Source of the DNA: Candidatus Thorarchaeota archaeon
Lineage (GTDB): Archaea; Asgardarchaeota; Heimdallarchaeia; Hodarchaeales; Hodarchaeaceae
DNA length: 28,570 nt
Assembly: GCA_048882505.1 (NCBI GenBank)
Contig: JBHLRO010000035.1
Coordinates: 1 to 28,570 of the forward strand
Direction of reading: 5' to 3'
The translations under genes were made by a program, and so were the position numbers. This document shows positions 3,582-27,155 of this stretch, piece by piece. Numbering within the stretch: position 1 is the stretch's first letter; every line of letters starts with the position of its first letter. The notes under the pieces are model-generated. The model worked only from the letters and a program-made list of their open reading frames with translations, did no database searches and was not told the DNA's origin.

Positions 3582-3806
3582 ATGGCATTGACAGCGATCA
3601 AGAAATGGGAAGATGATGATCTTTGGGTAACAATAGATCTTGATCTGTGTAATGCTCAGGGCGAATGTGTAGATATTTGTCCTGAGGAAGTTTACGCGAT
3701 TGTTAAGGGAAAAGTCGTTGCGGACAATATTGCCGCGTGTACCGAATGTGCTGCATGTGACGGAGTATGTCCAACCGATGCCATTTTAGAGCATTGTTCA
3801 TGGTAA
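3582..3806 (+). CDS. Dicluster ferredoxin (probably 3Fe-4S/4Fe-4S)
   Basis: CNAQGECVDICP and CTECAACDGVCP motifs; ATG at 3582 (the ORF track uses TTG 3579). Confidence 0.92.
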   Translation: MALTAIKKWEDDDLWVTIDLDLCNAQGECVDICPEEVYAIVKGKVVADNIAACTECAACDGVCPTDAILEHCSW

Positions 3807-3849
3807 TTTGCAAAAGAAGTTTTACTGAATCCTCTTCTTTGTTCGTTCT

Positions 3850-4200
3850 TTACGCCCCGAATCTTTTAACGAGGGAAAAGTCGGGGATATACACATAGGC
3901 CATCAATTTCTCCGTTAGAGTTTCTACTTCAACGAGGGTTCTGTGATACAGAGAACCTTCTCCTTCAACACGATCGAGCTCCACCCAATGAGAGGATGTA
4001 ACGTTGAAATATACCTCTCCTAGAACTGAAGATCTAGCATTCTCTACAATAAATGGAAAACCCAGATCAGGTGATTGAATCTTTCTATAACCATGTAGAG
4101 TGGCATTTTCGTACATTAGACCAGCCAATAGATGATGACGACTTTGGCCTGATTGTAGGGTGCCATATACGAATAATCGATCGCATTCCATAAGACTCAC
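3850..4200 (-). CDS. Gamma-glutamylcyclotransferase (GGCT/AIG2-like) family protein
   Basis: LFVYGTLQSG N-terminal motif, V.GEVY, LDRVEG..LYHR and AYVY. Confidence 0.9.
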   Translation of the reverse strand: MSLMECDRLFVYGTLQSGQSRHHLLAGLMYENATLHGYRKIQSPDLGFPFIVENARSSVLGEVYFNVTSSHWVELDRVEGEGSLYHRTLVEVETLTEKLMAYVYIPDFSLVKRFGA

Positions 4201-4206
4201 TGTCTT

Positions 4207-5754
4207 TCATTGAACTTGGCGTCCATATGTCCCATTTAAGGCCGCTAATTCCTTTCCTTTTTCCGCAGTTAGTTGATTCCAAGAAAATCTCCATTGCCAA
4301 TTCCCTTCAGAAGTACCTGGAGTATTCATCCGGCCATCCTGCCCAAGTCGGAGTAGGTCTTGAAGCGGGATAACACATAGCTGGGCTACCGAACTCCATG
4401 CCAATCTGATCAAATCTCCTACGATATCTTTACCTGGGGAGTTTGTATACTCTAAAACTTGCTGCCTTACGTGTCGGGGGCTATTTTTGAACCAAGAAAA
4501 TGTTGGAGGATTATCATGTGTCCCCGTATAAACGATGGTTTTGGCAGTAAAATTGTGCGGTAAATACTTGTTTGTTAAATTCTGCTTTTCGTGAGGAGAC
4601 CCAAAAGCAAATTGAAGTACCCGCATGCCATAGAACCCGGTTTGATTTAGTAGTTCCTCGACTTCAGGGGTGATATAGCCGAGATCTTCTGCAATAATTG
4701 GGAGTAAACCTAATGTTTTCCTTAAAGCCGAGAAAAGACGAATTCCTGGTCCTGCGACCCACTTTCCGTTGAGGGCTGTTTCTTCTTCAGCTGGTATTTG
4801 CCAATAGGATTCAAATCCCCTAAAATGGTCGATTCGTAGTATATCCACTAGCCGCAAGGAATGCTTAATACGTCTAATCCACCATCCATACCCATCCTCT
4901 TTCATTTGTTCCCATCGATAGGTAGGATTTCCCCAGCGTTGGCCCGTTGGAGAAAAATAGTCCGGAGGAACTCCGGCCACGAAGGTTGGATTCCCCTCAT
5001 CATTTAGGTGAAATAAACGTCTATTGACCCAAACATCCGCAGAGTCATGGTCAACGAAGATCGGGATATCCCCTATGATTTTGACGCCTTTTTGGTTGGC
5101 ATATTCCTTGGCTTCAGTCCATTGCATCCAGAAGAGAAACTGAACAAATTTGTATAACGAAATTTCTGAGTTATGGTTCTCCCGCCAGTTACTAAGTGAC
5201 TCTGATTTTCTATTTCGTAACGAGGGTTTCCATTCTGTCCAAGATGCCATATTATGCGCTTTTTTTATCGACATGAACAAACAGTAGTCTTCTAACCAAA
5301 ATGAATGTTCCTGTACAAACCGTTCGAAAAGGGATTCCAATTTATTAAAGGTTCCAGATTTGAAATTTTGGTTTGCGGTCTTTAATAACTTCCATTTGAA
5401 TGGGATGACCTTATTAAAGTCGACAAACAAATCAGGAAAATGAACAGGTCTTAAATCATCCAGTAAACCCTGAATGACTAATTTTTCGGGATTTATTAAC
5501 AGAGGATTTCCGGCAAAGGCAGAAACGCATGAATAGGGAGAATTTCCATATCCTGTCTGTCCTAGGGGAAGAATTTGCCATAACGACTGGTGAGCTTCAT
5601 CTACTAGGAAGTCTATGAACTTGTAGAGATTGGAACCCAGATCGCCAATTCCCCATTTTCCCGGAAGACTTGTAGGATGTAAAAGGATGCCACTCAATCT
5701 TCGGCATTTAGAATAACGATTTACCCAAGAAGCTCCCTGGGATGATATATGCAT
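4207..5754 (-). CDS. malQ: 4-alpha-glucanotransferase (amylomaltase, GH77)
   Basis: SGILLHPTSLPG, WQILPLG, SPYS..SAFAGNP, GDIPIFV..DSADVW, GVPPDYFS.TGQRWGNP, RIDHFRGF, IAEDLG, YTGTHDN and MNTPG...GNWQWR. Confidence 0.96.
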   Translation of the reverse strand: MHISSQGASWVNRYSKCRRLSGILLHPTSLPGKWGIGDLGSNLYKFIDFLVDEAHQSLWQILPLGQTGYGNSPYSCVSAFAGNPLLINPEKLVIQGLLDDLRPVHFPDLFVDFNKVIPFKWKLLKTANQNFKSGTFNKLESLFERFVQEHSFWLEDYCLFMSIKKAHNMASWTEWKPSLRNRKSESLSNWRENHNSEISLYKFVQFLFWMQWTEAKEYANQKGVKIIGDIPIFVDHDSADVWVNRRLFHLNDEGNPTFVAGVPPDYFSPTGQRWGNPTYRWEQMKEDGYGWWIRRIKHSLRLVDILRIDHFRGFESYWQIPAEEETALNGKWVAGPGIRLFSALRKTLGLLPIIAEDLGYITPEVEELLNQTGFYGMRVLQFAFGSPHEKQNLTNKYLPHNFTAKTIVYTGTHDNPPTFSWFKNSPRHVRQQVLEYTNSPGKDIVGDLIRLAWSSVAQLCVIPLQDLLRLGQDGRMNTPGTSEGNWQWRFSWNQLTAEKGKELAALNGTYGRQVQ

Positions 5755-7702: not shown

Positions 7703-8395
7703 TTATGCATCAAATAGCGAATAGATTAAGAGTTCAAAGCTTTCTATAGCTTCCACCATCGCGGAAACATCAGATATTGGCAGATAAATAGGATCCTCCA
7801 GATCATAATCCAGATTGAGGAGGGGGATTCCATGATGATTATAGTTCGAGAGGATCCACGTTCCATCCAGCACGCCAAGGATCTGATGTTGCTTTGAAAA
7901 TACCAATGAAAGAGAGGATCCATTGTCATACGCAAGGTCCATCAGGTAAGTTGGCGGCCAAATATCCATCAAATCCGTAATCTGATCGGAGGATTCGTTT
8001 ATTTGGGCAATGACACCACGAAATTTGGTAAATGCTTGATTAAGATCAGTTTGCTCTACAAGGGCGAAATCGGCCACTGGCTCATGAATTAAGGCCATTT
8101 CTTGGGAGCCATTCGCCAAACGACCAACTCTCACTCCGTCAATGTATTTACCAAAGTGTGTACTTAGGTTAAGATTAGTAAAAGTATTGTTATAGCACCA
8201 TACATAGGCTATCTCGTCTTCTGATGCACTCATTCTAGATGCAATTCGAAATCCAATTTTGTTATCATCGGGAGGCTGCTGATTTTCATCGACGGGGTTC
8301 AAGAGTAATGGGAGTGAATTAAGAGCTATCGCTAGCACAATTACACCACAAAAAGCTATAACTAAACCGTAAATTCCAATTTTCTTTACATTCAT
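7703..8395 (-). CDS. Hypothetical membrane-anchored/secreted protein (230 aa)
   Basis: N-terminal KK plus a hydrophobic helix (IGIYGLVIAFCGVIVLAIAL), several N-x-S/T sequons, no family recognised. Confidence 0.7.
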   Translation of the reverse strand: MNVKKIGIYGLVIAFCGVIVLAIALNSLPLLLNPVDENQQPPDDNKIGFRIASRMSASEDEIAYVWCYNNTFTNLNLSTHFGKYIDGVRVGRLANGSQEMALIHEPVADFALVEQTDLNQAFTKFRGVIAQINESSDQITDLMDIWPPTYLMDLAYDNGSSLSLVFSKQHQILGVLDGTWILSNYNHHGIPLLNLDYDLEDPIYLPISDVSAMVEAIESFELLIYSLFDA

Positions 8396-9206
8396 TTTTC
8401 TCTAATTCCTTTTCCAACGATTCTGAGATCGTTAAGAGTTTCTGGGATAGCCCAGACCCTTTTAAAAGTCCGAAGGAATCCAGCTTTGGTATATCCACAG
8501 TCATTTAAAGAACCAAATATTAGAACGCGGTTTCTAACCTTTAGAACAGAATCAAAGAGGATTTGTAAAGCACCTGACTTGCCACATTCTAGTTTATAGA
8601 ACTTGATGAAGTCCAATTGCGAGCAGGATTGAGCGCATTTTGCCAAACGGTGCGATTTCCTGCCTCGATGGAACCATTAACCTGAAAATTACCTTCAGCT
8701 GTAGGTTTTACGCACGATAATCTGGCAAAGATTACTTGATCATGACTCTGAGAGGTAAGATAGAGATCCGGGGACACGCTTTTTCAGGGCGGTTTTTGCT
8801 GAATCAGTTATCTGGGAATCGGCCCAACGTATCATCGCCATGGTTTCAGAACGCAGCTTCTGGTATTTTAAGGAGTAACACCCATTTCAGTTCTTGTAGA
8901 TTTTGGCAGCCTCTTTGGACCTAGCTTTTGACTTGATAATAAGTGTTTTGGGTAGGTTAGTGGCCAGAGTTCTGTAGTTGTCAATTCATGTTTTGGCGAC
9001 CAATTAGGCATCAAAAAAGCAAGACACGCACCATCTGGCGAGAGATCTTTGGATTTTTTTTCAAAGCTCGTGATATCTTAGGGGAGGATTGGTTCCACGG
9101 TTCAATATAACAAGGAAGAAAACCAGGAGAGGAAAAAAAAGGGGCATATTATCTAATCCTTTCTGGAGAAATTTCTTGTTAATGATTTTAAACGAGTAAT
9201 AGTATA

Positions 9207-9323
9207 ATGTCTATCCAAAAAGTCGCTCTTTATGCTCGTGAGAACGGTTTTTCGATAGAAATAAATACTGAAAGTGATTATCCCGTTACATTTTCGAATA
9301 GAATATCTAGTTTAGCTTATTAA
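9207..9323 (+). pseudogene. 38-codon mini-ORF resembling a collapsed serine-recombinase N-terminus
   Basis: Manual translation MSIQKVALYARENGFSIEINTESDYPVTFSNRISSLAY*. KVALYAR resembles the resolvase first strand; the catalytic V-S-T is absent. Confidence 0.25.
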
Positions 9324-9609
9324 TTTTGATCCATGTGTTTTGATCGTCAAAAGATCATGTGACTTTATGCTTAACACGAACATCTTATAATTCCATGTTG
9401 TGAATCTGAACAGAGAATACTAAAAAGGGGTGTTTGTATCATATCATTATATTTCCCAAATCCAATAACCTATTGAGAGACAATTTGTTATTACAGTGGG
9501 GATTCACTCTATCAGCGACTCTTATACAGAAAATGAGGAATTTATCGTTATTTATCGTTCCAAATAACGCTGGAATGATAAAACAAATCTACATAAGAGT
9601 GGATTCCTG

Positions 9610-12600
9610 GTGCATCAGCATAATATCGGAAAAAATCTATTTGTTCTCGGTCTTCTTTTGATTAATCTCCTTGTTATTTCATTTCCTCTCGAGGAAGAAG
9701 GGATTTTGGAATCAGATCATCCTTCTACAGAGATCTTAAGGGCCTCGCGATTTCATAATCAGCCCCAAGGACTATTTCAAAATATACCAAGATTAACAAA
9801 AGACGATAGGGCGATCTATGAGAACACCAATGATAATCCACCTGGTATTAAACTCCGAATCTCAGATTATTACACTCCGGGGTGGGCTGATACTCGATTT
9901 AATTTTAGAAAGAATATCACAATAGATTCAACGAAAGTTAGCTCAGACTTAACGAATTTTCCTATTTACATTGACCTTTATGATTCCAATTTACCACAAA
10001 ACGCTCAAGCTAGTGGTAATGATATTCTATTTACTAATAGTTCTGGGCATTTACTTGATCACGAAATCGAGACCTTTGACCGTGTATATAATTCCACTCA
10101 CGCGCATCTTACAGCATGGATAAAAACAAATATTTCTAGTTCTCAGGATACGGTCCTCTCCATGTATTATGGATACCCTGGTGCAATAGATCAATCAAAT
10201 CCTCAAGGGGTGTGGGACGATAACTATGAGTTTGTTCTCCACATGAACCAAGACCCTTCCTCTTCTGATATATTAGATAGTACTTCCAATGGCTTTGATT
10301 TTGATGTTGAAGTGTCTTCGAGCATGACTTCAGATGATCTAGTAGTTGGACAAACGGGCACGGCTCTTGCACTGGATGGAAGTGATGACTTCATCTATCT
10401 TCCTTTAGCAGAAGGTTTTGCTGGCCCTACAGACAAGTTCACATTTGAATTTTGGATAATGTTTCCAAATGGAGGACCAGGGTTGAGAGATACATTGGCC
10501 ATGCCAGCTACATCATTTGGCGCCCCACATTTATATTTTTTTCAACAATCTGAATTTAAGGTAGCGACTTCAGGATCGACGTATATTCAGACATCTCAAG
10601 ACTTTCAAACCATAGTAGGTACTTGGCAGCATATAGTAGCTATCTGGGATGGAACAGGCGGAGGGATTCATCAACTCTATCTCAATGGTTCATTGGATGC
10701 AAATGATCCAACGCCACTAACTGGTACACATGTTGCTTGGAATACGCTCTCAATAGGAACTGAGGATTTACCTGGTGATGGGCCTGGTGGGAGTTATGAT
10801 AATGCCCGTAATCTCAATGCAACAATAAGTGAATTTCGGTTATCAAACGTAGTAAGATCCGTTGATTGGATAACCACAGAATATGAAAACCAAAACTCCC
10901 CAAAGTCATTTTACTCAATAAGTTCGGAGGAGAAGTATTCTGATATCCCCGAATGGCATTTGCCAGGCTTTAAGTACCGAAAAGGTATTACTATTGATGC
11001 CGCAGAAGTAAGCGGAGGCGGAATTCTCACGAATTTTCCGGTATTGATAGATCTATATGATTCTGATCTACATCATCCAGACAAAGTTCAAGCAGATGGT
11101 GATGATATAGTATTTTCAGATGCTTCAGGAAATTTATTAGATCATGAAATTGAATTATTTGACCAGAATTATGATTCAACTAACGCTCATTTGATTGCAT
11201 GGATCGAAATTCCCAGCCTTTCAGGCACTGTTGATACTGAAATATTCATGTATTTTGGCAATAAGGGCATTGGGATTCAGGAGAATCCGACAGGAGTATG
11301 GGATTCAAATTATGTAAGTGTATGGCATTTAAATCAGGATCCTTCGGGAACTTCACCTCAAATAATTGATAGTACCACTCCAGGTTCTCATGGTACTTCT
11401 AACGGATCGATGACCTCTAATGATCTTATTACAGGAAAAATCGGGTATGGTCTCAATCTCGATGGAGCTGATGATTTTATTGATTTTGGCAATCCTTCAG
11501 AGGTTCAAATTACGGGAGCCATTACCGTTGAATCATGGTTCCGTGCGCTGGAAGATCAAAACGAGTATTTAATTTCAAAGAATGGCCCTGGACCTGATAA
11601 ACGTTCATGGGATTTAAGTTTTGATCCTTTTAATGGTACTCACGGCAAACTAGTCTTTCGGTATGATACAGATGGAGTTTTACCTCATTATGGAGAAGTA
11701 GATAATGTTTATTATGAAATAGGTCAATGGCACCATGTTGTGGGTGTATTTAGCCCCTCTACCTATTTAAGGATGTACCTAAATGGCCAATTGGTTTATG
11801 ATAATTCAACAGCTGCTCCTTCCCAGTATGATGCAGGAAATCCGTTACGGATTGGAGCTAGAGGCGACGATCCCCCAGGTAGCTTTTATAATGGCTCAAT
11901 TGATGAAGCTCGTATCTCGAACATAGCTCGTTCATCAGATTGGGTAATTACAGGATATAACAATCAGTTTGATCCGAATGGGTTTTCTTCTATTGGTTCC
12001 ATCGAGATACGTGGTAATTGGACTTTACCCTATCTGAGATTTAAAAAGAGCATTGCAATTCAAAGTTCTGAGGTTTATGGAACAGGAAATCTGTACAATT
12101 TTCCTGTTCTAATAGACCTATACGATTCTGATCTCCATGCAACTGAAAAGGTACAAACGGATGGGGATGATATCGCTTTTACTGATGCCAATGGGGCACG
12201 ATTGGATCATGAGATCGAACTTTTCGATCAAAGTTTCAATTTATCACATGCTCATTTAATGGCATGGGTAAAAATTCCAATTCTTTCTGGTACTACAGAT
12301 ACTCCCATATACATGTGGTATGGAAATTCAGCTGTTAAATCATTGGCAAATCCTACAGGTGTTTGGCAGGATTATGGGGCGGTTTGGCATCTGAATGATG
12401 ACTTCTTGGATTCCACAGCAAACAATAATGATGGGACAAATTATCAATCAACTGATGTTGGTGGAAAGATCGTGGATGGCCAGGACTTTGATGGGATTAA
12501 TGATTATATCAATGTTGGATCAGATTCTAGTATTGATAACATTTTTAATGGAGGGGCAACTATTTCAGCCTGGATTTACCCTGAAGGATGGGGTGGCGGT

Positions 12601-15600
12601 TATTATGGGCGGATTCTGGATAAGGCTGCTCAAACAGCAGGTACTAATGGATGGGTAATGTGTATCGATGGTACAGGAAATCCTTATAACCATTTATTGT
12701 TTTATAGAGACTTTAGTACAAGCCGAGGACTCTGGTACACTCCCACGGACTCAATAAGTCTTAATCAGTGGCAGTACGTGGTAGTAGCTTTCGATGATAG
12801 TTCTGATGCGAATGTTCCAAAGGTTTACATTAATGGGATATTACAACCCTTAACCCCAGAACCTTTACCTAGTGGGTCGGCTACCACGGATGCCGTTCAA
12901 TCGTTATATATTGGCAATTTTATGGGTGGAGGTAGAACTTTTGACGGTACGATAGATGAGCCCCGAATTGCATATAATTATCTTTCAGGTGATTGGATTC
13001 AAACCGAGTTTAATAACCAACTAAATCCTTCAAATTTCTATACAATTGGTATGGAAGAAGAGAGGTTATGGGCTGACACGTCATTCCGTTACAGTAAAGA
13101 TATCAGTATTAATCAGTCTAATGTGTCCTCTGACTTTACGGATTTCCCTGTGCTAATTGATATTATTGATAGTGACCTAAAGAGTGGAAAAATTAAATCA
13201 GATGCGTCTGATATATTGTTTATAGATTCAATAGGGACAAAACTTGATCATGAGATTGAATCATTCACTCAATCTGGAAGCGATGGTCATCTAACAGCTT
13301 GGGTAAGAGTACCCTATTTGTATAATGCAGAAGACACCGTTATCACAATGTATTACGGTAATTCGAAGATTAGCAATCAAGAAAATCCTGATAATGTATG
13401 GGATTCAAATTTCAGAGGGGTATGGCATCTTTCTGAAGATCCGTCAGTATCCCAAATATTCGATAGTACATCGTACAATAATCATGGAACTGCTACTAAT
13501 CTGGCTTCTGATGATCAAGAAAGCGGTCAAATAGATGGCAGCATTGATTTTGATAATGTCCAAGACCAAATTAATTATGGGGATCAATCTTCTTTAAATA
13601 TGGGTTCTGGTGATTTTTCACTTTCTTTATGGTTTAATTATGATGGTGTAGACAAGGGACCGCTAGCAGGAAAAGGATCCTATGGCTCTAATGGAATTAG
13701 GTATTATATTGCCATGGATACAACGCAAGGCCTTATAAAAGGAGAAATCGATGATAACGGGGCTTCAGGAAAGAAAGTAATTACTTCCACTGTGACTTAT
13801 GGGGATAATTTATGGCATCATGCGGTATTAGTAAGAGATGGGAATTACCTAAGATTTTACATTGATGGAGTTGAAATCCCGGGATCACCTATTGACATCA
13901 CTGGGTATGGGAGTCTTGATTTGGCTTTACCTTTTTATATGAATACATTAGCCAGTGATACTGGTGGAACTCTAAGTGATTGGACTAGCGCCAAACTGGA
14001 TGAAGTCCAGGTTTCAAACTCTGTTCGTTCCACAGATTGGATTAATGCTCAGTACACCAACCAACACACCCCAACAAGCTTTTATTCTGTTGGAACAGAA
14101 TTTTATCTAGATAAAACTCCCCCCGTTATAAACGATTACGGAACGGAAGATCCTGGCACAGGATCAGGAAGATTTTGGGCTGATGTTTCTGATGTTACTT
14201 CCAGCGTAAGCAGTGTAAAGATAAAAATTAATACTACTGAATATGATATGAGCTTTAATGGTTCCTATTGGATTTACATTCAATCAGTTAACTATGGAGA
14301 TACTTATGAGTATCAGATCTCTAATGCGTCTGATGTAAGAGACAACTATATAACAAGTCCCTCAAATTTAAAGGTATCTACTTTTACAGCAGATACGATT
14401 GACCCGTATGTTGATGATTGGGAATACTTCCCAGACGAAGGACAATATGGTACGTTTAAAGCAAATGTTTCAGATTCCTGGGGGATCATTGATACGGTCA
14501 TTGTGAATGTTACTGTCGGAACTATTTTACAGGGAGACCCCTGGGCTTTAATGGTTCTCAATGGAACGGGATACATGAATAATACAATCGCAATGAATTC
14601 AGGAACGATCAAATTCGTAATTAAAGTGAATGATACTGCAGGAAACAACTATACTTCAGGAGAGCACCAAGGCTACGTCCCCATTATTAACCATTATCCG
14701 GTTGCAAGTGATATCACGCTTTCTCGTTCTCAAAATGAAGTCTCGTTACCGATATATAGCAATAGTACACTATTTCTGAATTATACTTTCTATGATGCTG
14801 ACGGTGATGATGAAGGGGGAACTGAGATTCGTTGGTATTTGAATGGGGCATTACAGTCAGCTTATAATAATCTCAAAGAGGTTCCTCCAACTGCTTTAAA
14901 CAAGGATGATTTCTGGAATGTGACTGTAAAACCAAAGGATGGCAAAGATTTTGGTGTATTGAATTCTTCTAGCACAATTACAATTCAAAATACACCTCCG
15001 AAAGTTACCAGTGCCAGCATAATACCCGCACTCCCCTACACTACTTCTGATCTCAGTATCAACTATGTATATTACGATAATGATGGTGATACAGAAAATA
15101 CCCTTATCCGCGAGATATACTGGTTTAAAGATAGTGTTTTACAAGTTTTATTGAATGGATCAACAACTATTCTTGCAGGAAATACAACCAAAGGGGAATC
15201 ATGGTATTATAAAATTATAGTAAACGATGGTTTTAATTCCTCTGGGACATATACTTCTTCAAGTGTTATAATAGCCAACAGTGCACCTACAGCAGCGGTG
15301 TTAACTATTTCGCCTTCAAATCCAACGACCAGTAGCGATTTAACCGCAGGATGGACGTTTAATGATGCGGATGGAGACTCCGAGATAGCTTATTTCATAG
15401 AATGGTATCAAGGGGTCACTCATCAACCGATTTATGACGGGTTGACTACCCTCCCTGCGGCAGCCACAACCAAAACTCAGGTTTGGTATTTCAAACTCAT
15501 AGTTAATGATGGAACGGATAATTCGAGTATATATACTTCTCCATCTGTTAATATATTGAATACCGCCCCCACTGCTTCAGGCATCACAATTACTTCTAAT

Positions 15601-18600
15601 CCTCTTACTAGTGATAATTTACAGGCAAGCTGGACATTTAATGACGTGGATGGCGATAGTGAAAGCACCAGTTGGATCATTCGCTGGTACAAGGACAATG
15701 TCTTACAAGCAGGGTATAATGATCTTCAAACAGTCTCCTCAAGTGCCACCTCCAAAGGAGAAGCCTGGAATTATACTGTAAAAGTCTACGATGGCACCAA
15801 CTATTCACTTCAGTACAATTCCTCCATAACCACCATTTTGAACAGTCCACCCACCGCATCAGGGTTAACAATTACTAATAATCCCACTACAAGTGATAAT
15901 TTAAGCGCTAGTTGGACTTTTAACGATGTAGATGGCGATACCGAAGACAGTAATTGGATTATCTACTGGTACAAAGACAACGTATTACAGGGAGGATACA
16001 CTAATCTTACGACGGTTTCCTCCAGTGCTACCTCCAAAGGGGAGGCATGGAATTATACCTTACAAGTGTATGACGGAACAGATTACTCAATACAATATGA
16101 CTCATCTACTACAGTTATTATAAATACTCCTCCAATAGCTTCGGGTTTATTAATTTCCCCTGCATATCCAGCTACTAATGATGATCTTTCAACAAGCTGG
16201 ACATTCAATGATGCGGATGGAGACTCCGAGATGGCTTATTTCATAGAATGGATTCGGGGGATCACTCATCAACCGATTTATGACGGGTTGACTACCCTCC
16301 CTGCGGCAGCCACAACCAAAAATCAAGTTTGGTATTTCAAACTCATAGTTAACGATGGAACGGATAATTCGAGTATATATACCTCTCCATCTGTAGATAT
16401 CGTTAATACCGCCCCCACTGCTTCAGGCATCACAATTACTTCTAATCCTCTTACTAGTGATAATTTACAGGCAAGCTGGACATTTAATGACGTGGATGGC
16501 GATAGTGAAAGCACCAGTTGGATCATTCGCTGGTACAAGGACAATGTCTTACAAGCAGGGTATAATGATCTTCAAACAGTCTCCTCAAGTGCCACCTCCA
16601 AAGGAGAAGCCTGGAATTATACTGTAAAAGTCTACGATGGCACCAACTATTCACTTCAGTACAATTCCTCCATAACCACCATTTTGAACAGTCCACCCAC
16701 CGCATCAGGGTTAACAATTACTAATAATCCCACTACAAGTGATAATTTAAGCGCTAGTTGGACTTTTAACGATGTAGATGGCGATACCGAAGACAGTAAT
16801 TGGATTATCTACTGGTACAAAGACAACGTATTACAGGGAGGATACACTAATCTTACGACGGTTTCCTCCAGTGCTACCTCCAAAGGGGAGGCATGGAATT
16901 ATACCTTACAAGTGTATGATGGGACGGATTACTCAATACAGTACAATTCATTCCTAACTACTATCGCGAATTCAGCTCCCATTATATCAGGCCAGCCATC
17001 ATTCAATAAGACCAGTGGTGTAGTTTCGAGCGATACTTTGAGCATTACCTACACATTCAGCGACGCTGATAGTGATTCAGAAATCACTGGAAATAGAATA
17101 GTTTTTTGGTATAAAAACGGGAATTATGATGCAGCTAAAGATAATGACATTATCTTACTAAGTTCGGAAACTTTAGCCGGTCAATGGTGGTACTATATAA
17201 TCAGAGTTTATGATGGAATGGATTATAGCCAAAATTATACTTCTGAGCCGGTTTCGATCGAAGGCGGGGGACAAACCAATGATCCGCCTATTGCAGGAAA
17301 TTTGACACTGACTCTCAGTCCAACTACCTTGGATAATTTGATTGCGAATTATGATTATTATGATAATGATTCAAATGAGGAAGCAGGAACCCAGATCCGC
17401 TGGTATAAAGATGGAATACTACAACCTCATTTGAATGATACAAAGACAATTCAATCCAGTGAGACAGCAAAAGGAGAGGTGTGGAACTTCACAGTTAGGC
17501 CTAAAGATGGCTTAGAATTTGGAAATATTGTTTTTTCTGGTAGTGTAATAATTTTAAATACTCCTCCAACGGGTTCAGGATTAGCTATTACTTCTATTCC
17601 CAGGACATCGGATGACCTAGTGGCCGGCTGGACTTTCAACGATGTAGATGGCGATACCGAAGACGGTAATTGGATTATCTACTGGTACAAAGACAACGTA
17701 TTACAGGGAGGGTACACTAATCTTACGACCGTTTCCTCCAGTGCTACCTCCAAAGGAGAGGTATGGAATTATACCATTCAAGTGTATGATGGAGAAGATT
17801 ACTCGATTCAGTATAATTCTTCTAGTACGACAGTCCTCAATACCATACCTACCGCGTCGAATTTGGGACTTACTTTTAATCCGTCAACAATTGATGATTT
17901 GGTCGTAAGTTATGCGTACAACGATCTCGATAATGATCCGGAAAGTTCCTCATGGGAGATCCTCTGGTACAAGGATAATAACCTCCAACCAGGACTAAAC
18001 GGCACTAAAACCGTAGATGCAGGGAACACGAGTAAAAATGAATTCTGGCATTTCACTCTAAGAGTCCATGATGGGGAAGAAATTTCAGTTCTTTACACCT
18101 CTCCAAGTCGGAAAATCCTTAATACAGCACCTACACTCACAAGTGTAAGTATCAATTCTAATCCCACTACTACCACTAACTTAGTGGCAAGCTGGACGTT
18201 TTCTGATATCGATAATGATGATGAAAGCACCACACGTATTATCAAGTGGTATATGAACAATGTATCTCAGCCCTCGTGGGATAATCTTACATTAGTTCCA
18301 GCAAGCGCAACAAGTAAAGGTGAATCATGGAACTATACAATTCGAGTATATGACGGAGAAGATTATTCAGTTGAATATGTCTCAAACCTTGTTATAATAC
18401 TTAATACTAAGCCAATATCCTCGAGTCTGACCCTAACAATAAGTATTCCTAAAACTTCAGATAATTTAATGGCTGATTGGATTTATACAGATATCGATGG
18501 AGATACTGAAAATTCTGGTTGGATAATTCGATGGTACAAGAATGATGTCTTGCAACCCGCCTTAAACGATTCAAAGATAGTTACTGCAGGTAATACAACA

Positions 18601-21600
18601 AAAGATGAAGTTTGGTATTATACCCTCCAAGTGTTTGACGGCGAGGATTATTCCGATATAAATACATTAAATCCAACCATAACAATCGCCAATACAAGAC
18701 CAAGCGCCTCTAGTTTAACAATCACCGCTAGTCCAAGAACTACCGACGATTTAGTAGCAGATTATATCTATTCCGATATCGATGGCGACATAGAAACGAT
18801 TGGCTGGATAATCAAATGGTACCGAGACGGGGGACATTATCCCCTTTATGATGATCTAAAGATAGTGCCATCAACTGCCACATCGAAGAATGAAATCTGG
18901 TATTTTACTCTTCAAGTGCATGATGGGACTAATTATTCCAGTGAATACGCCTCTCCGCAAACACAAATCCTAAACAGTGCACCATATGCAAGTGGTGTAT
19001 CTTTCAGTCCATCCATTCCAACTGCCTTAAACAATCTCTCCGTCACCTATAGCTGGAATGATGATGATTTAGCCGATTCTGAAGGAGGAACTCTTATCAG
19101 GTGGTATAGAAATGATATTCTCCAACAAACATATAATGATTTGAGAACGGTGGATAGCGCTCTCCTCATTAAGAATGAGCGCTGGAACGTATCAATAAGA
19201 GTCTCTGACGGTACAGATTTCGGCGCATGGGTAAATATAAGTGTCCTTATTGCTAATTCAGCACCAACAATTGTAACTGATTCGGCGCAGATATATAATC
19301 CATCTACAGGATTATATACAACAAATACACTGGTAGCAAATTGGGTTGAAAATGATGCCGATGGAGATAATATAACATTTGTTAAAATAATTTGGGAAAA
19401 TCGAACAAGCGGGTCAGGTTCCTTTACTCCAATATCTCTCTTAGAAAACTTAACAGCTGTTCCTTCTCAATATACTGCGAAAGACCAGGATTGGCGATTT
19501 AAGATTCAAGTATATGATGGCCAAGATTGGTCATTAGAGGCTGCCTCCTTCCTATCATCTATCGGTAACTCAGAGCCTATTGTGGAGAATATTTCGTTAA
19601 CTGGAGGATTAACAACAACTGATAATATTATACTCAATTATGATTATTATGATGCAGATAATGATCCTGAAGGATCAACTGATATTGACTGGACAGTGTT
19701 CCATCTGGGCAGTCCTTCATTCATTTCAGGAACCTTCATATTAGATCACTCGAGCTTTACTGCGGGTGACGTCGTTTGGTGTGTGATTACACCAAATGAT
19801 GGAACCATTGATGGAACTCCAGTTGATTCATCAAAGCTAGCAGGATCGAATGTGTTGGTACAAGTAGGTAACACCGCTCCATTTATCAATACGTCCTTAG
19901 GAACTCCTGAAATTCTAAGCGATCACCCTAATGGTACATCAATATTCAATGCAATTACTTCAATCTATGTAAATTACTCAGATTTTATAGTTGATATTGA
20001 TTCAGGTGAAAGTGATCCAGTATTTGATGTAGATTTCGAACCAAATTATGATGTACAGTATGTACCTGGAGTAACCAAAAACATAGGTGCTCAATATCGA
20101 TGGTATAAGTTTAATAAAGGTTCTGGGATATGGGAACTACAATCCGGGCTCACAACTGCTTACGTTGATACATTCTATTTACATAGAGGCGAGGAATGGA
20201 AATGTAGTGTTCGTCCTCGCGATCTATATGGTGATGAGGGGACGTGGGTGAATTCAACAACAATTACTATTGGGAACAGTTATCCCATTATTACGGGAGG
20301 AATTCAATGGTTAATCCAAAATCCTCGAACTCAAGATAACTTAATTCTTTGGTCTGGTTTCACGTTTGATTATTATGATTTTGACAACGATCCTATTGAT
20401 ATCTCTCAGACTCTAATCTTGTGGTTCAAGAATGGACAATTACTATATGGAACCCAGAATAATACAGTTCTAACTAGTCAGTATTTTGGAAAAGGAGATC
20501 AAATTTATGTAGTGATTCGTCCTTCTGACGGTATGAACTGGGCTTTACGGAACTACACCAGTTCGACAATTACCATTGCTAATACCATACCTACCATAAC
20601 AGACGTAAGTCTCTATCCAACAAGAATATCGAACCAAGAAATCCTATATCTGGACTGGACTTATTTTGATATTGACAATGATGTTGAAGGTACTTCCTGG
20701 CGAATCTGGTGGTTCAGAAACGGGGTGTACCAGTCCAATTATGATAACTCCACGTCAATACCCCTAAAACAGGTAAATAATGGCGAAATATGGAAAGCCG
20801 AGTTTCAAGTCTTTGATGGAATAGATTACAGCACTATATATTATTCTGCTGAAATAGAAACCAAAATTCTCCAAATAAATTACATCTTTGACCCTGTGAG
20901 TAGCCAAGTTGACCCCAATGTCAGAGAAAGCGAGTTTTTGGTTGATGATGAGAATTTAAGTATATCATACTTGTTTTCAACGCAAGATGATGCTTTGGGC
21001 CTAATTATCAGATGGTTTAGTACATTGGATAATGTAACTTGGATTGAACGAACCGAATTTGAAGGAGATACATCAATCGATCATTATTTCACATCGCCAG
21101 GTGAACAATGGAAGTGTATGATCTCACCTCTTGAGCAAAGTACTGGTTTTGTTTGGGCAACGACTAATTCAAGTACAATAATGATTGAAAGTAGGCCTGA
21201 GTTTTACACTCTGTCTGAGGAAATTATGATCCCATTGAATGACACTGAAGGCCATTATAGACTACAAATAAATACCTCGGATCTACTCCATGACATTGAA
21301 ATTGTCATATTCACATTGGATAATGGTGCAATTGAACTCTATGCCACAGAAATGAGCAATGACATTTGGTCGGTAGATTATCAAATTCCGATTGAAAGAT
21401 TTGAAGATTTAATGAACTCCGAATTCTTAGGATATGTAAGAGCTGTTACTTCCGTTGATTATGCGGGTAACGACTTTAGTATTTATGCTAGTAAACAATT
21501 TAACATTACGATCATTGACAACGCACCTCCACGGGTTCCAAATGTCCAGATGATTCCAAATGATGAAACAAACCCAACTAATATCACATTCATAGCTGAA

Positions 21601-22596
21601 GTGGAGGAATATGGTTCTGGCGTAGCCGGTGTAATACTCCTTTATTATTTAAATCCCAGTACTGAAAACAGTGGAGGTGCAGGTGCCTCTTATCTTCAAA
21701 CAGAAGACTGGATTGAAATTCAAATGGAATTTCATGGTATTAATTCCTCAACCAACTACCTTGAATATTCTGTAACAGTACCATTCGACCCTAATGGTAC
21801 AAATTGGCAAGTTATATATCGAATTCAAACCTTTGATAATGCAGGTAACTCGAACCCATTAGCTTATGATATAAGGAACTATCCTGATAGGATAAGAGAA
21901 CAAACAATTTACTACACTCCTCCTAGTATAGATCCTGGCTTAGTCATTATTATTGTAGCTATAACACTATTCATCGCATTTACGGGCTCGATAGTTTATG
22001 TAAAATTCATCCGAAAGCCTGAATTAGTGGGTTTAGATAAAGAACTAGTATTGGAAAGGATCAGCGATATTTCAAAGACCGAAGTAATGACCTCACTGGA
22101 TGCCCATACAGTCGGGCTTGTTGTATCATTCTTTGATCAAAGACACGGGCCCATACCAATCATTGTTATCCCGGAAATCTTGAAGGACAATTTTTCAAAA
22201 CTGGTTGATCTTTCTGATCGTTCTTTCAGTGGAACCGGCTTTGTTGATGAATTTGATGAAGAGGTTTCATCAAGCTATGATTTTATGCTTTCTAGAGGTT
22301 TACGTACAAAAGTGATGTCATTTGGATATTCCTTGGAAAGACCAGAGGCACGAGGGGGCCAAGAAAATCTTACAGCCAACATATTGATACACAGGGAATT
22401 ATTCCCATTAGTAAACCAATTCTTGGATGAGATTCAGGAAAAGGTTCGTGAGATACACGTCCTAATGAATGAAAAAGCGGACGAAAAGGAGAGAATCCGA
22501 AAGAAACTATTTGCCCTTCGATTATTTGTAACAAGGATCATTCTTTCTTATGAACAAATTTACGGCACTACTGAATTACTTAGTGAGGATAATTAG
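9610..22596 (+). CDS. Giant single-pass surface glycoprotein (4328 aa): 4x DUF2341+LamG, Ig/cadherin-like repeat stalk, TM helix, cytoplasmic uDENN/longin-like domain
   Basis: Uninterrupted 12,987-bp ORF with a hydrophobic N-terminus (NLFVLGLLLINLLVISFP), very many N-x-S/T sequons, repeated domain motifs and one C-terminal TM segment followed by basic RK. Confidence 0.95.
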   Translation: MHQHNIGKNLFVLGLLLINLLVISFPLEEEGILESDHPSTEILRASRFHNQPQGLFQNIPRLTKDDRAIYENTNDNPPGIKLRISDYYTPGWADTRFNFRKNITIDSTKVSSDLTNFPIYIDLYDSNLPQNAQASGNDILFTNSSGHLLDHEIETFDRVYNSTHAHLTAWIKTNISSSQDTVLSMYYGYPGAIDQSNPQGVWDDNYEFVLHMNQDPSSSDILDSTSNGFDFDVEVSSSMTSDDLVVGQTGTALALDGSDDFIYLPLAEGFAGPTDKFTFEFWIMFPNGGPGLRDTLAMPATSFGAPHLYFFQQSEFKVATSGSTYIQTSQDFQTIVGTWQHIVAIWDGTGGGIHQLYLNGSLDANDPTPLTGTHVAWNTLSIGTEDLPGDGPGGSYDNARNLNATISEFRLSNVVRSVDWITTEYENQNSPKSFYSISSEEKYSDIPEWHLPGFKYRKGITIDAAEVSGGGILTNFPVLIDLYDSDLHHPDKVQADGDDIVFSDASGNLLDHEIELFDQNYDSTNAHLIAWIEIPSLSGTVDTEIFMYFGNKGIGIQENPTGVWDSNYVSVWHLNQDPSGTSPQIIDSTTPGSHGTSNGSMTSNDLITGKIGYGLNLDGADDFIDFGNPSEVQITGAITVESWFRALEDQNEYLISKNGPGPDKRSWDLSFDPFNGTHGKLVFRYDTDGVLPHYGEVDNVYYEIGQWHHVVGVFSPSTYLRMYLNGQLVYDNSTAAPSQYDAGNPLRIGARGDDPPGSFYNGSIDEARISNIARSSDWVITGYNNQFDPNGFSSIGSIEIRGNWTLPYLRFKKSIAIQSSEVYGTGNLYNFPVLIDLYDSDLHATEKVQTDGDDIAFTDANGARLDHEIELFDQSFNLSHAHLMAWVKIPILSGTTDTPIYMWYGNSAVKSLANPTGVWQDYGAVWHLNDDFLDSTANNNDGTNYQSTDVGGKIVDGQDFDGINDYINVGSDSSIDNIFNGGATISAWIYPEGWGGGYYGRILDKAAQTAGTNGWVMCIDGTGNPYNHLLFYRDFSTSRGLWYTPTDSISLNQWQYVVVAFDDSSDANVPKVYINGILQPLTPEPLPSGSATTDAVQSLYIGNFMGGGRTFDGTIDEPRIAYNYLSGDWIQTEFNNQLNPSNFYTIGMEEERLWADTSFRYSKDISINQSNVSSDFTDFPVLIDIIDSDLKSGKIKSDASDILFIDSIGTKLDHEIESFTQSGSDGHLTAWVRVPYLYNAEDTVITMYYGNSKISNQENPDNVWDSNFRGVWHLSEDPSVSQIFDSTSYNNHGTATNLASDDQESGQIDGSIDFDNVQDQINYGDQSSLNMGSGDFSLSLWFNYDGVDKGPLAGKGSYGSNGIRYYIAMDTTQGLIKGEIDDNGASGKKVITSTVTYGDNLWHHAVLVRDGNYLRFYIDGVEIPGSPIDITGYGSLDLALPFYMNTLASDTGGTLSDWTSAKLDEVQVSNSVRSTDWINAQYTNQHTPTSFYSVGTEFYLDKTPPVINDYGTEDPGTGSGRFWADVSDVTSSVSSVKIKINTTEYDMSFNGSYWIYIQSVNYGDTYEYQISNASDVRDNYITSPSNLKVSTFTADTIDPYVDDWEYFPDEGQYGTFKANVSDSWGIIDTVIVNVTVGTILQGDPWALMVLNGTGYMNNTIAMNSGTIKFVIKVNDTAGNNYTSGEHQGYVPIINHYPVASDITLSRSQNEVSLPIYSNSTLFLNYTFYDADGDDEGGTEIRWYLNGALQSAYNNLKEVPPTALNKDDFWNVTVKPKDGKDFGVLNSSSTITIQNTPPKVTSASIIPALPYTTSDLSINYVYYDNDGDTENTLIREIYWFKDSVLQVLLNGSTTILAGNTTKGESWYYKIIVNDGFNSSGTYTSSSVIIANSAPTAAVLTISPSNPTTSSDLTAGWTFNDADGDSEIAYFIEWYQGVTHQPIYDGLTTLPAAATTKTQVWYFKLIVNDGTDNSSIYTSPSVNILNTAPTASGITITSNPLTSDNLQASWTFNDVDGDSESTSWIIRWYKDNVLQAGYNDLQTVSSSATSKGEAWNYTVKVYDGTNYSLQYNSSITTILNSPPTASGLTITNNPTTSDNLSASWTFNDVDGDTEDSNWIIYWYKDNVLQGGYTNLTTVSSSATSKGEAWNYTLQVYDGTDYSIQYDSSTTVIINTPPIASGLLISPAYPATNDDLSTSWTFNDADGDSEMAYFIEWIRGITHQPIYDGLTTLPAAATTKNQVWYFKLIVNDGTDNSSIYTSPSVDIVNTAPTASGITITSNPLTSDNLQASWTFNDVDGDSESTSWIIRWYKDNVLQAGYNDLQTVSSSATSKGEAWNYTVKVYDGTNYSLQYNSSITTILNSPPTASGLTITNNPTTSDNLSASWTFNDVDGDTEDSNWIIYWYKDNVLQGGYTNLTTVSSSATSKGEAWNYTLQVYDGTDYSIQYNSFLTTIANSAPIISGQPSFNKTSGVVSSDTLSITYTFSDADSDSEITGNRIVFWYKNGNYDAAKDNDIILLSSETLAGQWWYYIIRVYDGMDYSQNYTSEPVSIEGGGQTNDPPIAGNLTLTLSPTTLDNLIANYDYYDNDSNEEAGTQIRWYKDGILQPHLNDTKTIQSSETAKGEVWNFTVRPKDGLEFGNIVFSGSVIILNTPPTGSGLAITSIPRTSDDLVAGWTFNDVDGDTEDGNWIIYWYKDNVLQGGYTNLTTVSSSATSKGEVWNYTIQVYDGEDYSIQYNSSSTTVLNTIPTASNLGLTFNPSTIDDLVVSYAYNDLDNDPESSSWEILWYKDNNLQPGLNGTKTVDAGNTSKNEFWHFTLRVHDGEEISVLYTSPSRKILNTAPTLTSVSINSNPTTTTNLVASWTFSDIDNDDESTTRIIKWYMNNVSQPSWDNLTLVPASATSKGESWNYTIRVYDGEDYSVEYVSNLVIILNTKPISSSLTLTISIPKTSDNLMADWIYTDIDGDTENSGWIIRWYKNDVLQPALNDSKIVTAGNTTKDEVWYYTLQVFDGEDYSDINTLNPTITIANTRPSASSLTITASPRTTDDLVADYIYSDIDGDIETIGWIIKWYRDGGHYPLYDDLKIVPSTATSKNEIWYFTLQVHDGTNYSSEYASPQTQILNSAPYASGVSFSPSIPTALNNLSVTYSWNDDDLADSEGGTLIRWYRNDILQQTYNDLRTVDSALLIKNERWNVSIRVSDGTDFGAWVNISVLIANSAPTIVTDSAQIYNPSTGLYTTNTLVANWVENDADGDNITFVKIIWENRTSGSGSFTPISLLENLTAVPSQYTAKDQDWRFKIQVYDGQDWSLEAASFLSSIGNSEPIVENISLTGGLTTTDNIILNYDYYDADNDPEGSTDIDWTVFHLGSPSFISGTFILDHSSFTAGDVVWCVITPNDGTIDGTPVDSSKLAGSNVLVQVGNTAPFINTSLGTPEILSDHPNGTSIFNAITSIYVNYSDFIVDIDSGESDPVFDVDFEPNYDVQYVPGVTKNIGAQYRWYKFNKGSGIWELQSGLTTAYVDTFYLHRGEEWKCSVRPRDLYGDEGTWVNSTTITIGNSYPIITGGIQWLIQNPRTQDNLILWSGFTFDYYDFDNDPIDISQTLILWFKNGQLLYGTQNNTVLTSQYFGKGDQIYVVIRPSDGMNWALRNYTSSTITIANTIPTITDVSLYPTRISNQEILYLDWTYFDIDNDVEGTSWRIWWFRNGVYQSNYDNSTSIPLKQVNNGEIWKAEFQVFDGIDYSTIYYSAEIETKILQINYIFDPVSSQVDPNVRESEFLVDDENLSISYLFSTQDDALGLIIRWFSTLDNVTWIERTEFEGDTSIDHYFTSPGEQWKCMISPLEQSTGFVWATTNSSTIMIESRPEFYTLSEEIMIPLNDTEGHYRLQINTSDLLHDIEIVIFTLDNGAIELYATEMSNDIWSVDYQIPIERFEDLMNSEFLGYVRAVTSVDYAGNDFSIYASKQFNITIIDNAPPRVPNVQMIPNDETNPTNITFIAEVEEYGSGVAGVILLYYLNPSTENSGGAGASYLQTEDWIEIQMEFHGINSSTNYLEYSVTVPFDPNGTNWQVIYRIQTFDNAGNSNPLAYDIRNYPDRIREQTIYYTPPSIDPGLVIIIVAITLFIAFTGSIVYVKFIRKPELVGLDKELVLERISDISKTEVMTSLDAHTVGLVVSFFDQRHGPIPIIVIPEILKDNFSKLVDLSDRSFSGTGFVDEFDEEVSSSYDFMLSRGLRTKVMSFGYSLERPEARGGQENLTANILIHRELFPLVNQFLDEIQEKVREIHVLMNEKADEKERIRKKLFALRLFVTRIILSYEQIYGTTELLSEDN
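9883..14105 (+). other. Four tandem DUF2341 + LamG/concanavalin-A-like modules (starting near 9883, 10951, 12016, 13066)
   Basis: Each module has W....F.YRK.ITI....V...L.NFPV.IDL.DS.L....Q.DGDDI.F....G..LDHEIE.F......HL.AW...P.......MY.GN......NP..VW, then W.L....DS...N.G, G..G....DG.DD.I, W.HVV.V, Y.NG, G.IDE.RIS...RS.DWI...Y.NQ..P..F. Confidence 0.85.
15352..16094 (+). repeat. Copy 1 of a near-identical intragenic DNA duplication (period 846 bp = 3 repeat units)
   Basis: Aligns to 16198-16940 at offset 846; 15559-16073 is identical to 16405-16919 by eye. Confidence 0.92.
16198..16940 (+). repeat. Copy 2 of the intragenic duplication
   Basis: As above. The duplicated shadow ORFs in the track (15477/16323 and 15677/16523) show the same 846 offset. 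Confidence 0.92.
17629..17775 (+). repeat. Third partial copy (~147 bp) of repeat unit 5/8
   Basis: Matches 15913-16059 and 16759-16905 with 6 mismatches counted by eye. Confidence 0.85.
21937..22011 (+). other. C-terminal transmembrane helix of the giant protein
   Basis: GLVIIIVAITLFIAFTGSIVYVKFI followed by RK (positive-inside), placing residues ~4135-4328 in the cytoplasm. Confidence 0.9.
22105..22593 (+). other. Cytoplasmic uDENN/longin-like domain (folliculin/SMCR8-like)
   Basis: VGLVVSFFDQRHGPIPIIV resembles the FLCN N-terminus IVALCHFCELHGP. SFGYSLERPEARGGQENLTA resembles FLCN [20 protein letters not shown] and SMCR8 LYDLEARGFVRP. Reference motifs are recalled, not searched. Confidence 0.75.
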
Positions 22597-26789: not shown

Positions 26790-27155
26790 TCACGATTGAA
26801 GAACCTCTTCAACGATTTCTTCAAGAAATTTTGCCATTTCGGAATTTATACTGACCTTATCGACTCCAATGTTCCGAGCTAACTCGAGTAGAGTTTTTTG
26901 AGTATGCCCTGCAAAAGCGATTATTTTTCCAGAAAATATTGATCTCAGCTTACGCAAGGTTTCAATTCCTCCCAAATCCGGGTTATTTAGGTCAAACACA
27001 ATTATCTGATAAGTATGGCATCTATCATATAGTTCTACTGGGTTGGAGACATCTGAAACCTCATACCCAGCTTCGTTCAATCGAGAACCAAATCTGCTAT
27101 AGAAAAAAAGACCTGTTCCCAGGAGGATGTTTGGTTTTGAGAGTGATTCTGGCAT
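26790..27155 (-). CDS. Single-domain CheY-like receiver protein, atypical
   Basis: IIVFDLNNPDLGGIETLRKLR...IIAF..H....ARNIGVDKV is the receiver-fold pattern, with Asp55 at the phospho-acceptor position. Confidence 0.7.
   Translation of the reverse strand: MPESLSKPNILLGTGLFFYSRFGSRLNEAGYEVSDVSNPVELYDRCHTYQIIVFDLNNPDLGGIETLRKLRSIFSGKIIAFAGHTQKTLLELARNIGVDKVSINSEMAKFLEEIVEEVLQS

Follow-up and report, generated by a model that had tools for sequence, protein, structure and literature searches.

A giant membrane-anchored surface protein of a Heimdallarchaeial archaeon with a predicted folliculin/SMCR8-type longin tail

Results

The window analyzed here is contig C35 (JBHLRO010000035.1), a 28,570-nt stretch of ~40% G+C from a Candidatus Thorarchaeota archaeon of the Hodarchaeaceae, whose genome (labeled G000) is 4.3 Mb in size and 94.5% complete. 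On its forward strand, at 9610-22596, lies one giant gene. Open reading frame (ORF) analysis gives 4,328 uninterrupted codons, or 12,987 nt, from a GTG start to a stop at 22594-22596. A prediction made earlier from the DNA alone, hereafter the original prediction, had proposed that it encodes a giant adhesin-like receptor whose cytoplasmic tail is a longin domain of the folliculin (FLCN)/SMCR8 type. Near-identical DNA repeats in the middle of the gene could mislead an assembler on copy number. It is nevertheless barely credible that the long frame reflects an error of assembly or annotation, or a gene in decay. The frame is unbroken, a protein of the same length and in the same 90% cluster is encoded by a different metagenome-assembled genome on a separate 186-kb contig (protein cluster lookup), and a sequencing-run search finds the window DNA in runs from further studies as well, with no RNA run among those listed. 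The architecture is also seen again in about ten paralogs and in the 153 clusters described below. We therefore rejected the artefact reading. The database name of the twin is only 'DUF2341 domain-containing protein [Candidatus Heimdallarchaeota archaeon]'.

We read the topology of the protein from hydropathy, the charges flanking the transmembrane (TM) helix, and the distribution of glycosylation sequons. In a Kyte-Doolittle profile (19-residue window, >1.6), there are two hydrophobic segments only, residues 5-29 and 4103-4134. The N-terminal segment (9622-9696), a putative signal peptide or signal anchor, has a counterpart in all N-terminally complete paralogs. The second contains the single TM helix, residues 4110-4134 (21937-22011), which follows an acidic, proline-rich stretch. 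The 15 positions before the helix contain zero basic residues, while K-F-I-R-K stands on its tail side. The ectodomain carries 84 N-x-S/T sequons, where 500 shuffles gave 60.9 ± 6.4 (maximum 84); the tail carries 2. The sequon-rich ectodomain of ~4,100 residues and the one TM helix are thus as originally described. The whole protein holds 4 cysteines. Because the N-terminus is signal-like, there is one TM helix, its flank is positive inside, and the sequons are skewed, we place the last 194 residues in the cytoplasm. All indicators point that way, and together they fit a giant type-I glycoprotein of the cell surface whose cytoplasmic tail measures 194 aa (residues 4135-4328; 22012-22593).

The ectodomain begins with four tandem modules of ~350 aa (9904-14097), each combining DUF2341 with Laminin_G_3, a concanavalin A (ConA)-like lectin/glucanase fold. 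Self-phmmer places their boundaries at residues 99-443, 456-815, 813-1164, and 1161-1496; Pfam reports PF13385 (E 1.9e-53) and PF10102 (E 3.9e-28) over four stretches each. A stalk follows. About 17 clear tandem repeats of ~95 aa with a W-x-F-x-D-x-D-G-D-like motif span residues 1690-3304 (14677-19521), as found by single-repeat phmmer and by DNA-level repeats of 278-300 nt that are 84-96% identical. Weak phmmer matches mark degenerate copies in residues 3305-3840 (19522-21129). Next to the membrane lies a module at residues ~3800-4105 (21007-21924) with 32-38% blastp identity to five paralogs. Neither Pfam nor NCBIfam has a family that matches the stalk repeats or the 300 residues next to the membrane, and NCBIfam gives zero matches over the entire protein. 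For the stalk repeat, residues 1480-1700, and the membrane-proximal module, Pfam returns only insignificant Big_9 and Cadherin_4 hints. The layout of the predicted 'lectin heads on a long stalk' therefore stands, as four modules on about 20 repeats. From the domain assignments, we infer that the ConA-like heads may bind carbohydrate and that the ectodomain may play an adhesin-like binding role outside the cell. Within the stalk, window positions 15277-16958 hold a recently duplicated three-repeat block with 846-nt spacing, its DNA copies 84-96% identical. Such a recent duplication implies that repeat number may vary, or be mis-assembled, between strains.

To model the tail, AlphaFold2 (AF2) was run both without and with an alignment. 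The single-sequence run on residues 4100-4328 was unusable, with a predicted local distance difference test score (pLDDT) of 35.6. With a 72-sequence alignment the tail reached a pLDDT of 93.3 and a predicted TM-score of 0.89. In this model, two short N-terminal helices precede a five-stranded core in the beta-beta-alpha-beta-beta-beta-alpha-alpha order of longins, with strands at tail residues 32-41, 45-52, 84-91, 97-108, and 116-126 and helices at 54-74, 137-153, and 158-183. The longin core thus occupies tail residues 32-183 (22108-22563). The preceding juxtamembrane hairpin, tail residues 9-31 (22039-22107; pLDDT ~97), contains a conserved VGLD motif and is specific to the family. Residue D8 of the tail is at least 90% conserved, and most structural matches begin only at tail residue 23-34.

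An exhaustive VIA-align comparison with 48,161 chains ranked the longin of a Lokiarchaeal Roadblock-Longin protein highest (8yqg_B; Z 13.9, root-mean-square deviation (rmsd) 3.0 Å over 141 residues). It was followed by FLCN-FNIP2-Rag-Ragulator (6nzd_H, Z 11.9), C9orf72-SMCR8 (7o2w_A, Z 11.6), Lst4 and GATOR1 (both Z 11.1), the SEA complex (Z 10.4), and DENND1A (Z 9.1). SNARE, adaptor (AP), and TRAPP longins scored about 7-8, roadblock and GAF domains about 6. In Foldseek, the best PDB match is FLCN (6ulg_N, E 6e-5), the Swiss-Prot models are led by SMCR8, LST7, DENND6, C9orf72, and LST4, and the top two AFDB clusters are 'Folliculin/SMCR8 longin domain-containing' proteins (TM-score 0.58-0.59). 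A search of the ESM Atlas returned a Heimdall cluster carrying PF11704, plus SMCR8 and C9orf72. The expected longin alpha/beta fold is therefore recovered, and within the predicted FLCN/SMCR8/NPRL2/C9orf72 class. The protein ends 10 residues past longin helix alpha3. Because no DENN module follows the longin, we consider the domain Lst7-like and longin-only.

Many LOV/PAS chains also appear in Foldseek at E ~1e-3, and GAF reaches Z ~6.5, which could point to a small-molecule or light-sensing domain of the PAS/GAF type. However, the LOV/PAS matches have TM-scores of 0.27-0.36 and rmsd values of 10-30 Å, and the VIA-align Z of 6 compares with 11-14 for longins. The strand order is that of a longin, and the profile link described next leads to Folliculin-type longins. 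A PAS/GAF-like sensor is very improbable, and on TM-score, rmsd, and Z we rejected the PAS/LOV reading.

Two motifs tie the tail to a particular class of longins. FFDQRHGP starts at residue 4174 and EARGGQ at 4246, as originally noted, and both are conserved over 72 family tails, not by chance. The Gly-Pro (GP) motif, G4180-P4181 (22147-22152), lies at the beta1-beta2 turn; R4248 (22351-22353), a candidate arginine finger by conservation, modeled strands, and alignment with the A-R-G of soluble Asgard proteins, lies in the beta4-beta5 loop. In tail numbering, G4180 is G45, which never varies; P46 (P4181) and R113 (R4248) reach at least 90% conservation, as do F40, D41, Q42, P110, G115, E117, and N118. 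Two sites gather the conserved residues: the beta1-beta2 turn (F40, D41, Q42, G45, P46, P48) and the beta4-beta5 loop (P110, R113, G115, E117, N118), with R113 in loop 109-115 between strands 97-108 and 116-126. The loops of FLCN and SMCR8 presumably read A-R-G-F.

A GP motif at the beta1-beta2 turn has been reported as specific to the GTPase-activating protein (GAP)-type longins FLCN, NPRL2, SMCR8, and C9orf72, where it adjoins the arginine finger, and as lacking from FNIP2, NPRL3, adaptins, TRAPP subunits, and the DENND family (PMC12290439). R147 of SMCR8, the equivalent of FLCN R164, is located in the longin beta4-beta5 loop (bioRxiv 10.1101/2020.04.16.045708). A class of soluble Asgard longins carries both the GP motif and the arginine finger (PMC12290439). 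Given these published placements (PMC12290439; 10.1101/2020.04.16.045708), the two motif sites of the tail coincide with those reported for the GP motif and for the arginine finger. The original label, 'uDENN (longin)', holds for an FLCN/SMCR8-type longin but not for uDENN domains in general; because F-x(4)-GP is specific to GAP-type longins and absent from the DENND family (PMC12290439), we narrowed it accordingly. Sequence position and modeled strands together support an FLCN/SMCR8-type (GAP-type) longin with both class signatures. GP-motif Asgard longins occur both with and without a candidate arginine finger (cf. 8yqg).

At the sequence level, the link to folliculin runs through relatives. 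The Folliculin family, PF11704, matches 24 of the 72 family tails at E<=1 (best 2.4e-4), with at most 5 tails for any other family. Two paralog tails score 18.5 and 14.6 bits, where the gathering threshold is 23.3. Among the soluble proteins that the tail profile matches weakly in other Asgard classes, two have N-terminal domains that pass that threshold (25.5 and 27.7 bits), and two are fusions of the domain with a Gtr1/RagA GTPase domain. When the tail profile was aligned to the soluble Asgard proteins with hhalign, the probability was 98.7% (E 1.6e-16). The register puts F-D-Q-x-x-G-P-x-P over F-D-E-x-G-P-x-P and R-P-E-A-R-G-G over D-P-x-A-R-G-x. A phmmer search of PDB sequences with a soluble Asgard Folliculin-type protein gave nothing useful, and a further profile matched only 8yqg.

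A HMMER search with residues 4136-4328 against 1.84 billion representative proteins defined a family: 153 clusters matched at E<=1e-3, and for 82 the match reached E<=1e-30. The domain is C-terminal in 153 of 154 locally re-scored matches, and a TM-like segment directly precedes it in 102 of the 114 testable members. The tails are predominantly tethered, behind varied ectodomains. The remaining 12 members are short (190-430 aa) and apparently soluble, since no TM-like segment lies upstream (P0047, P0055, P0067, P0072, P0075, P0082, P0118, P0135, P0136, P0143, and P0148 among them). In several of these, the sequence upstream of the domain is hydrophilic, heptad-like, and possibly coiled-coil. 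The short members could be soluble partners of the tethered tails.

The source genome holds nine more copies of the tail, ending open frames of 823 to 10,069 codons. All extracted paralogs have one TM helix followed by a tail of 188-230 aa, and a signal-like start wherever the N-terminus is complete. Identity to the window protein is 52-67% for the tails, whereas the ectodomains are 32-47% identical or unalignable, consistent with stronger constraint on the tail. DUF2341/LamG heads are common to four paralogs; the ectodomains of the others have no Pfam match. Along with TM helix and tail, the membrane-proximal module of ~300 aa is conserved. In a phylum sample of 201 genomes, strong tail matches occur in 9 of 9 genus-mates, mostly in multiple copies (2 to 9 per genome), in two additional families belonging to the same class, where the proteins have ~1,500-1,600 aa, and in one other family. 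More distant classes have weak matches only, in soluble proteins of 250-500 aa.

We also observed a tandem trio of genes each ending in a TM helix and a family tail (G000:C10:95239-125427 with C9:121065-126896; also G062:C193, G127:C14, G136:C13, G115:C87, G206:C52, and G201:C52). Its products are a giant of ~8,800-10,400 aa, a protein of ~1,540-1,560 aa, and one of ~1,000-1,060 aa with a divergent tail (22% identity, 230 aa, with a very basic juxtamembrane stretch). The conservation of this trio hints at hetero-oligomers of tails.

There are seven strong Gtr1/RagA-like genes in the source genome (106-134 bits). Five of the seven are found no more than 4.3 kb from the 3' end of one of three paralogs, and for three genes the distance is 28-77 nt. 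Beside the paralog on contig C1, a 300-aa Rag-like gene begins 56 nt downstream on the same strand, and a second one lies 4 kb further on. The C4 paralog faces a convergent 739-aa Rag-fusion gene across a 77-nt gap, followed by genes for a 313-aa Rag-like protein and a WD40 propeller, and the C50 paralog a convergent 648-aa Rag-fusion gene across 28 nt. Rag-like genes also stand beside tail genes in genus-mates (G115:C49, G204:C28, G204:C112, G202:C168, G206:C28, and G136:C9).

A divergent gene pair is kept across the genus, encoding a ~740-aa Rag-like fusion, whose ~550 C-terminal residues have no Pfam match, and a ~310-aa Rag-like GTPase. It often lies beside a gene for a TM-longin giant. 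In the source genome the pair is at C4:49729-53082, with the 705-aa WD40 propeller gene after it at 47577-49694; others are at G115:C49, G201:C12, G202:C168, G204:C28, G204:C186, G206:C28, G207:C1, G208:C350, G203:C98, and G136:C9. Near the C1 paralog, a 304-aa ORF with no Pfam match (G000:C1:28178-29092) sits between cysS and the second Rag-like gene.

We then predicted a complex, with GTP and Mg included, between the window tail and the Rag-like GTPase whose gene starts 56 nt after the C1 paralog. The score was 0.60, compared with 0.35 for the best of 3 controls, for a verdict of 'weak support'. Of 80 solved complexes, 58 reach the mark it passed, as do 2 of 110 mismatched pairs, but just 7 of those 80 score 0.60 or lower, and so do both passing mismatches. 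Contact agreement between runs was at least 95%, and the pLDDT of the partner at least 84. Since comparable assemblies (FLCN-RagC, GATOR1-RagA) already have solved structures, the pass may reflect memorization by the predictor.

Discussion

FLCN is the catalytic subunit of the FLCN-FNIP GAP for RagC/D. We think it reasonably probable, at roughly 60%, that the tail docks a Rag/Arf-family GTPase at the membrane and probably switches it off as a GAP. GTPase docking and GAP activity is the most likely job because the domain keeps both the GP motif and the arginine of the beta4-beta5 loop, which in eukaryotic longin GAPs make up the catalytic pocket. The proposed mechanism would run as follows. Outside the cell, the four ConA-like heads on their stalk of ~20 repeats would bind in the manner of an adhesin. 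The TM helix and the juxtamembrane hairpin would hold the longin domain at the plasma membrane, where the tail is predicted to dock a Rag/Arf-family small GTPase and probably to inactivate it. The tail would probably work as a longin dimer, its partner being either a second tail or a soluble longin. By clustering on the surface they bind, the ectodomains could then determine where or when the GTPase is inactivated. GTPase binding, GAP catalysis, dimerization, and outside-to-inside coupling are all inferred. For the originally predicted one-component contact sensor with control over a small GTPase, the support is indirect: the conserved catalytic-site motifs, the Rag-like genes beside three paralogs but not beside the window gene, and the weak complex prediction.

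Several points weigh against this reading. No GTPase gene neighbors the giant gene among the ORFs of the window, and the majority of paralogs have no adjoining GTPase gene either. The Rag linkage in genus-mates probably reflects orthologous synteny, which leaves few independent events. Besides being weak, the complex prediction used as partner a neighbor of a paralog and not of the window gene. A single TM helix offers no obvious path for conformational signaling. Known longin GAPs are heterodimers with a second, non-catalytic longin (FNIP, Lst4, NPRL3, or C9orf72), and no FNIP/Lst4-like partner emerged for the window gene. The tail of the window protein itself has no Pfam match even at E<=10, and searches of PDB sequences with phmmer and with the tail profile did not find FLCN, only coiled-coil noise; homology to eukaryotic FLCN therefore rests on structure and the transitive link. 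Finally, in a HMMER alignment the closest solved structure, the Lokiarchaeal 8yqg, shows the GP motif without the loop arginine, so that fold rank alone does not imply GAP activity.

The same structure lends weight to the main competing explanation, in which the tail is a passive, non-catalytic platform or anchor that dimerizes the giants or docks a scaffold, such as a Rag dimer or the cytoskeleton. Its role would be to set the position of the surface proteins, with neither GAP activity nor signaling. Ragulator and EGO, which dock Rags, would be its model. The best structural match is, after all, a dimeric longin without the arginine. One cassette of TM helix and tail, with the membrane-proximal module, stands behind otherwise unrelated ectodomains, as might be expected of a shared anchor, and a single-pass helix is poor at transmitting signals. 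Longin and roadblock domains are, moreover, generic dimeric platforms (PMC10933270). The linkage to Rag genes fits a platform and a GAP equally. What speaks for the GAP is that conservation peaks at the GAP pocket (the GP turn and the A-R-G-G loop), not just in the core or at the dimer edge, and that the GP motif does not occur in non-GAP longins (PMC12290439). A mere platform is thus a serious contender, though we judge it unlikely. More doubtful still is a role in biogenesis or sorting, with the tail engaging an SR-beta/Arf-like GTPase for the targeting, insertion, or trafficking of giant secreted proteins. The analogy is the longin-like SRX domain of SR-alpha, which binds SR-beta. The cassette is confined to signal-bearing giant proteins, and the 739-aa and 648-aa GTPase fusions next to paralogs do pass Pfam SRPRB (29.2 and 26.3 bits, cut-off 25). 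However, the adjacent GTPases are far stronger as Gtr1/RagA (104-134 bits) than as SRPRB, and most paralogs want such a neighbor altogether. The nearest structures are FLCN, SMCR8, and NPRL2, with no signal-recognition-particle receptor chain among the matches listed. A sorting module is accordingly quite improbable.

Compared with the Folliculin/Lst7 longin (PF11704), the tail shares the fold, as a top-ranking structural match, the GP motif at the beta1-beta2 turn, and the arginine of the beta4-beta5 loop. Like Lst7, it is a longin with no DENN module, and the Lst7 model aligns over tail residues 31-193; Rag-type GTPase genes adjoin paralogs. Unlike Folliculin and Lst7, it has its own TM tether behind a 4,100-aa ectodomain and an extra juxtamembrane hairpin, and the window tail falls below Pfam detection. 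SMCR8-C9orf72 and NPRL2-NPRL3 (GATOR1) likewise resemble the tail in fold (Z 11.6 and 11.1), GP motif, and loop arginine (PMC12290439; 10.1101/2020.04.16.045708). They differ in being soluble complexes of several subunits, which carry DENN or NPRL2-specific C-terminal domains and which other proteins recruit to lysosomes. The soluble 'Folliculin/SMCR8 longin' proteins of Asgard archaea belong to the same domain class, have the same two motifs, and come from the same phylum, notably from Heimdallarchaeia. Whereas they are cytosolic, or fused to GTPase or two-component domains, the window family is TM-tethered in most testable members. Giant prokaryotic adhesins such as SiiE, LapA, and MpIBP (PMC6272769, PMC5550230) resemble the ectodomain in their thousands of residues, tandem beta-rich repeats, lectin-like heads, and DNA-level repeat expansion. 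However, their ends are secretion signals or anchors to the outer membrane or cell wall, rather than folded regulatory domains in the cytoplasm.

Published Asgard examples already include soluble FLCN/SMCR8-type longins, fusions of longin and Rag domains, and NPRL2-like longins joined to two-component domains (PMC12290439; 10.1101/2020.10.19.343400; PMC10933270). Those papers mention no TM or extracellular architecture, and neither PMC12290439 nor PMC10933270 uses the word 'transmembrane'. No giant protein anchored by a TM helix and ending in a longin is described in the full-text literature searched, which covered few subscription journals. What appears to be new is the architecture of a TM giant with a GAP-type longin, together with its family; the domain class itself was already known.

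It is tempting to compare the family with plexins, eukaryotic single-pass receptors that combine a large adhesive or ligand-binding ectodomain, one TM helix, and an intracellular Rap/Ras GAP activated by clustering. The analogy is functional only. The GAP fold of plexins is RasGAP-like and not a longin, the ectodomains are unrelated, and there is no homology. Still, one may speculate about a plexin-like family of receptor GAPs in Heimdall-group archaea, in which giant adhesion proteins clustered on another cell or on a substrate join their longins and switch off Rag-like GTPases, and in which the FLCN-Rag system once served contact sensing at the plasma membrane. We regard this as a tentative idea that is more likely wrong than right by some distance. 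If true, the FLCN-Rag module was a contact-sensing plasma-membrane system before eukaryotes moved it to the lysosome.

FLCN, GATOR1, and C9orf72-SMCR8 are longin GAPs that control Rag/Arf GTPases on lysosomes. The soluble Asgard relatives were tied to longin GAPs only recently (PMC12290439). Our findings show concretely how Rag/Arf regulation could have had an address at a membrane before endomembranes existed, and suggest how an archaeon that lives in syntrophic contact might translate touch at its surface into GTPase switching. In the archaea most closely related to eukaryotes, the cell surface may thus be linked to GTPases. With about ten paralogs per genome and a short, well-folding domain of 190 aa, the family is open to direct expression and assay. 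Because strains of the Heimdall group are now cultured (10.1101/2025.02.26.640444), localization and interaction tests are feasible.

Other features of the window

Upstream of the giant gene are the housekeeping genes GH77, MoaB/MoaE, and a GCS2-like gene; a major facilitator superfamily (MFS) transporter and an S15 peptidase lie downstream. The 1.2 kb immediately upstream (8396-9609) contain no ORF of at least 100 codons, and the lowest G+C of the window, 34.8%, falls at 9001-10000. Two further ORFs, 1300-2289 on the forward strand (329 aa) and 7703-8395 on the reverse strand (230 aa), have no Pfam match at E<=0.001. On the reverse strand, a 121-aa ORF at 26790-27155 has a sub-threshold match to Response_reg (28.4 bits, cut-off 30.2) and may encode a stand-alone receiver domain.

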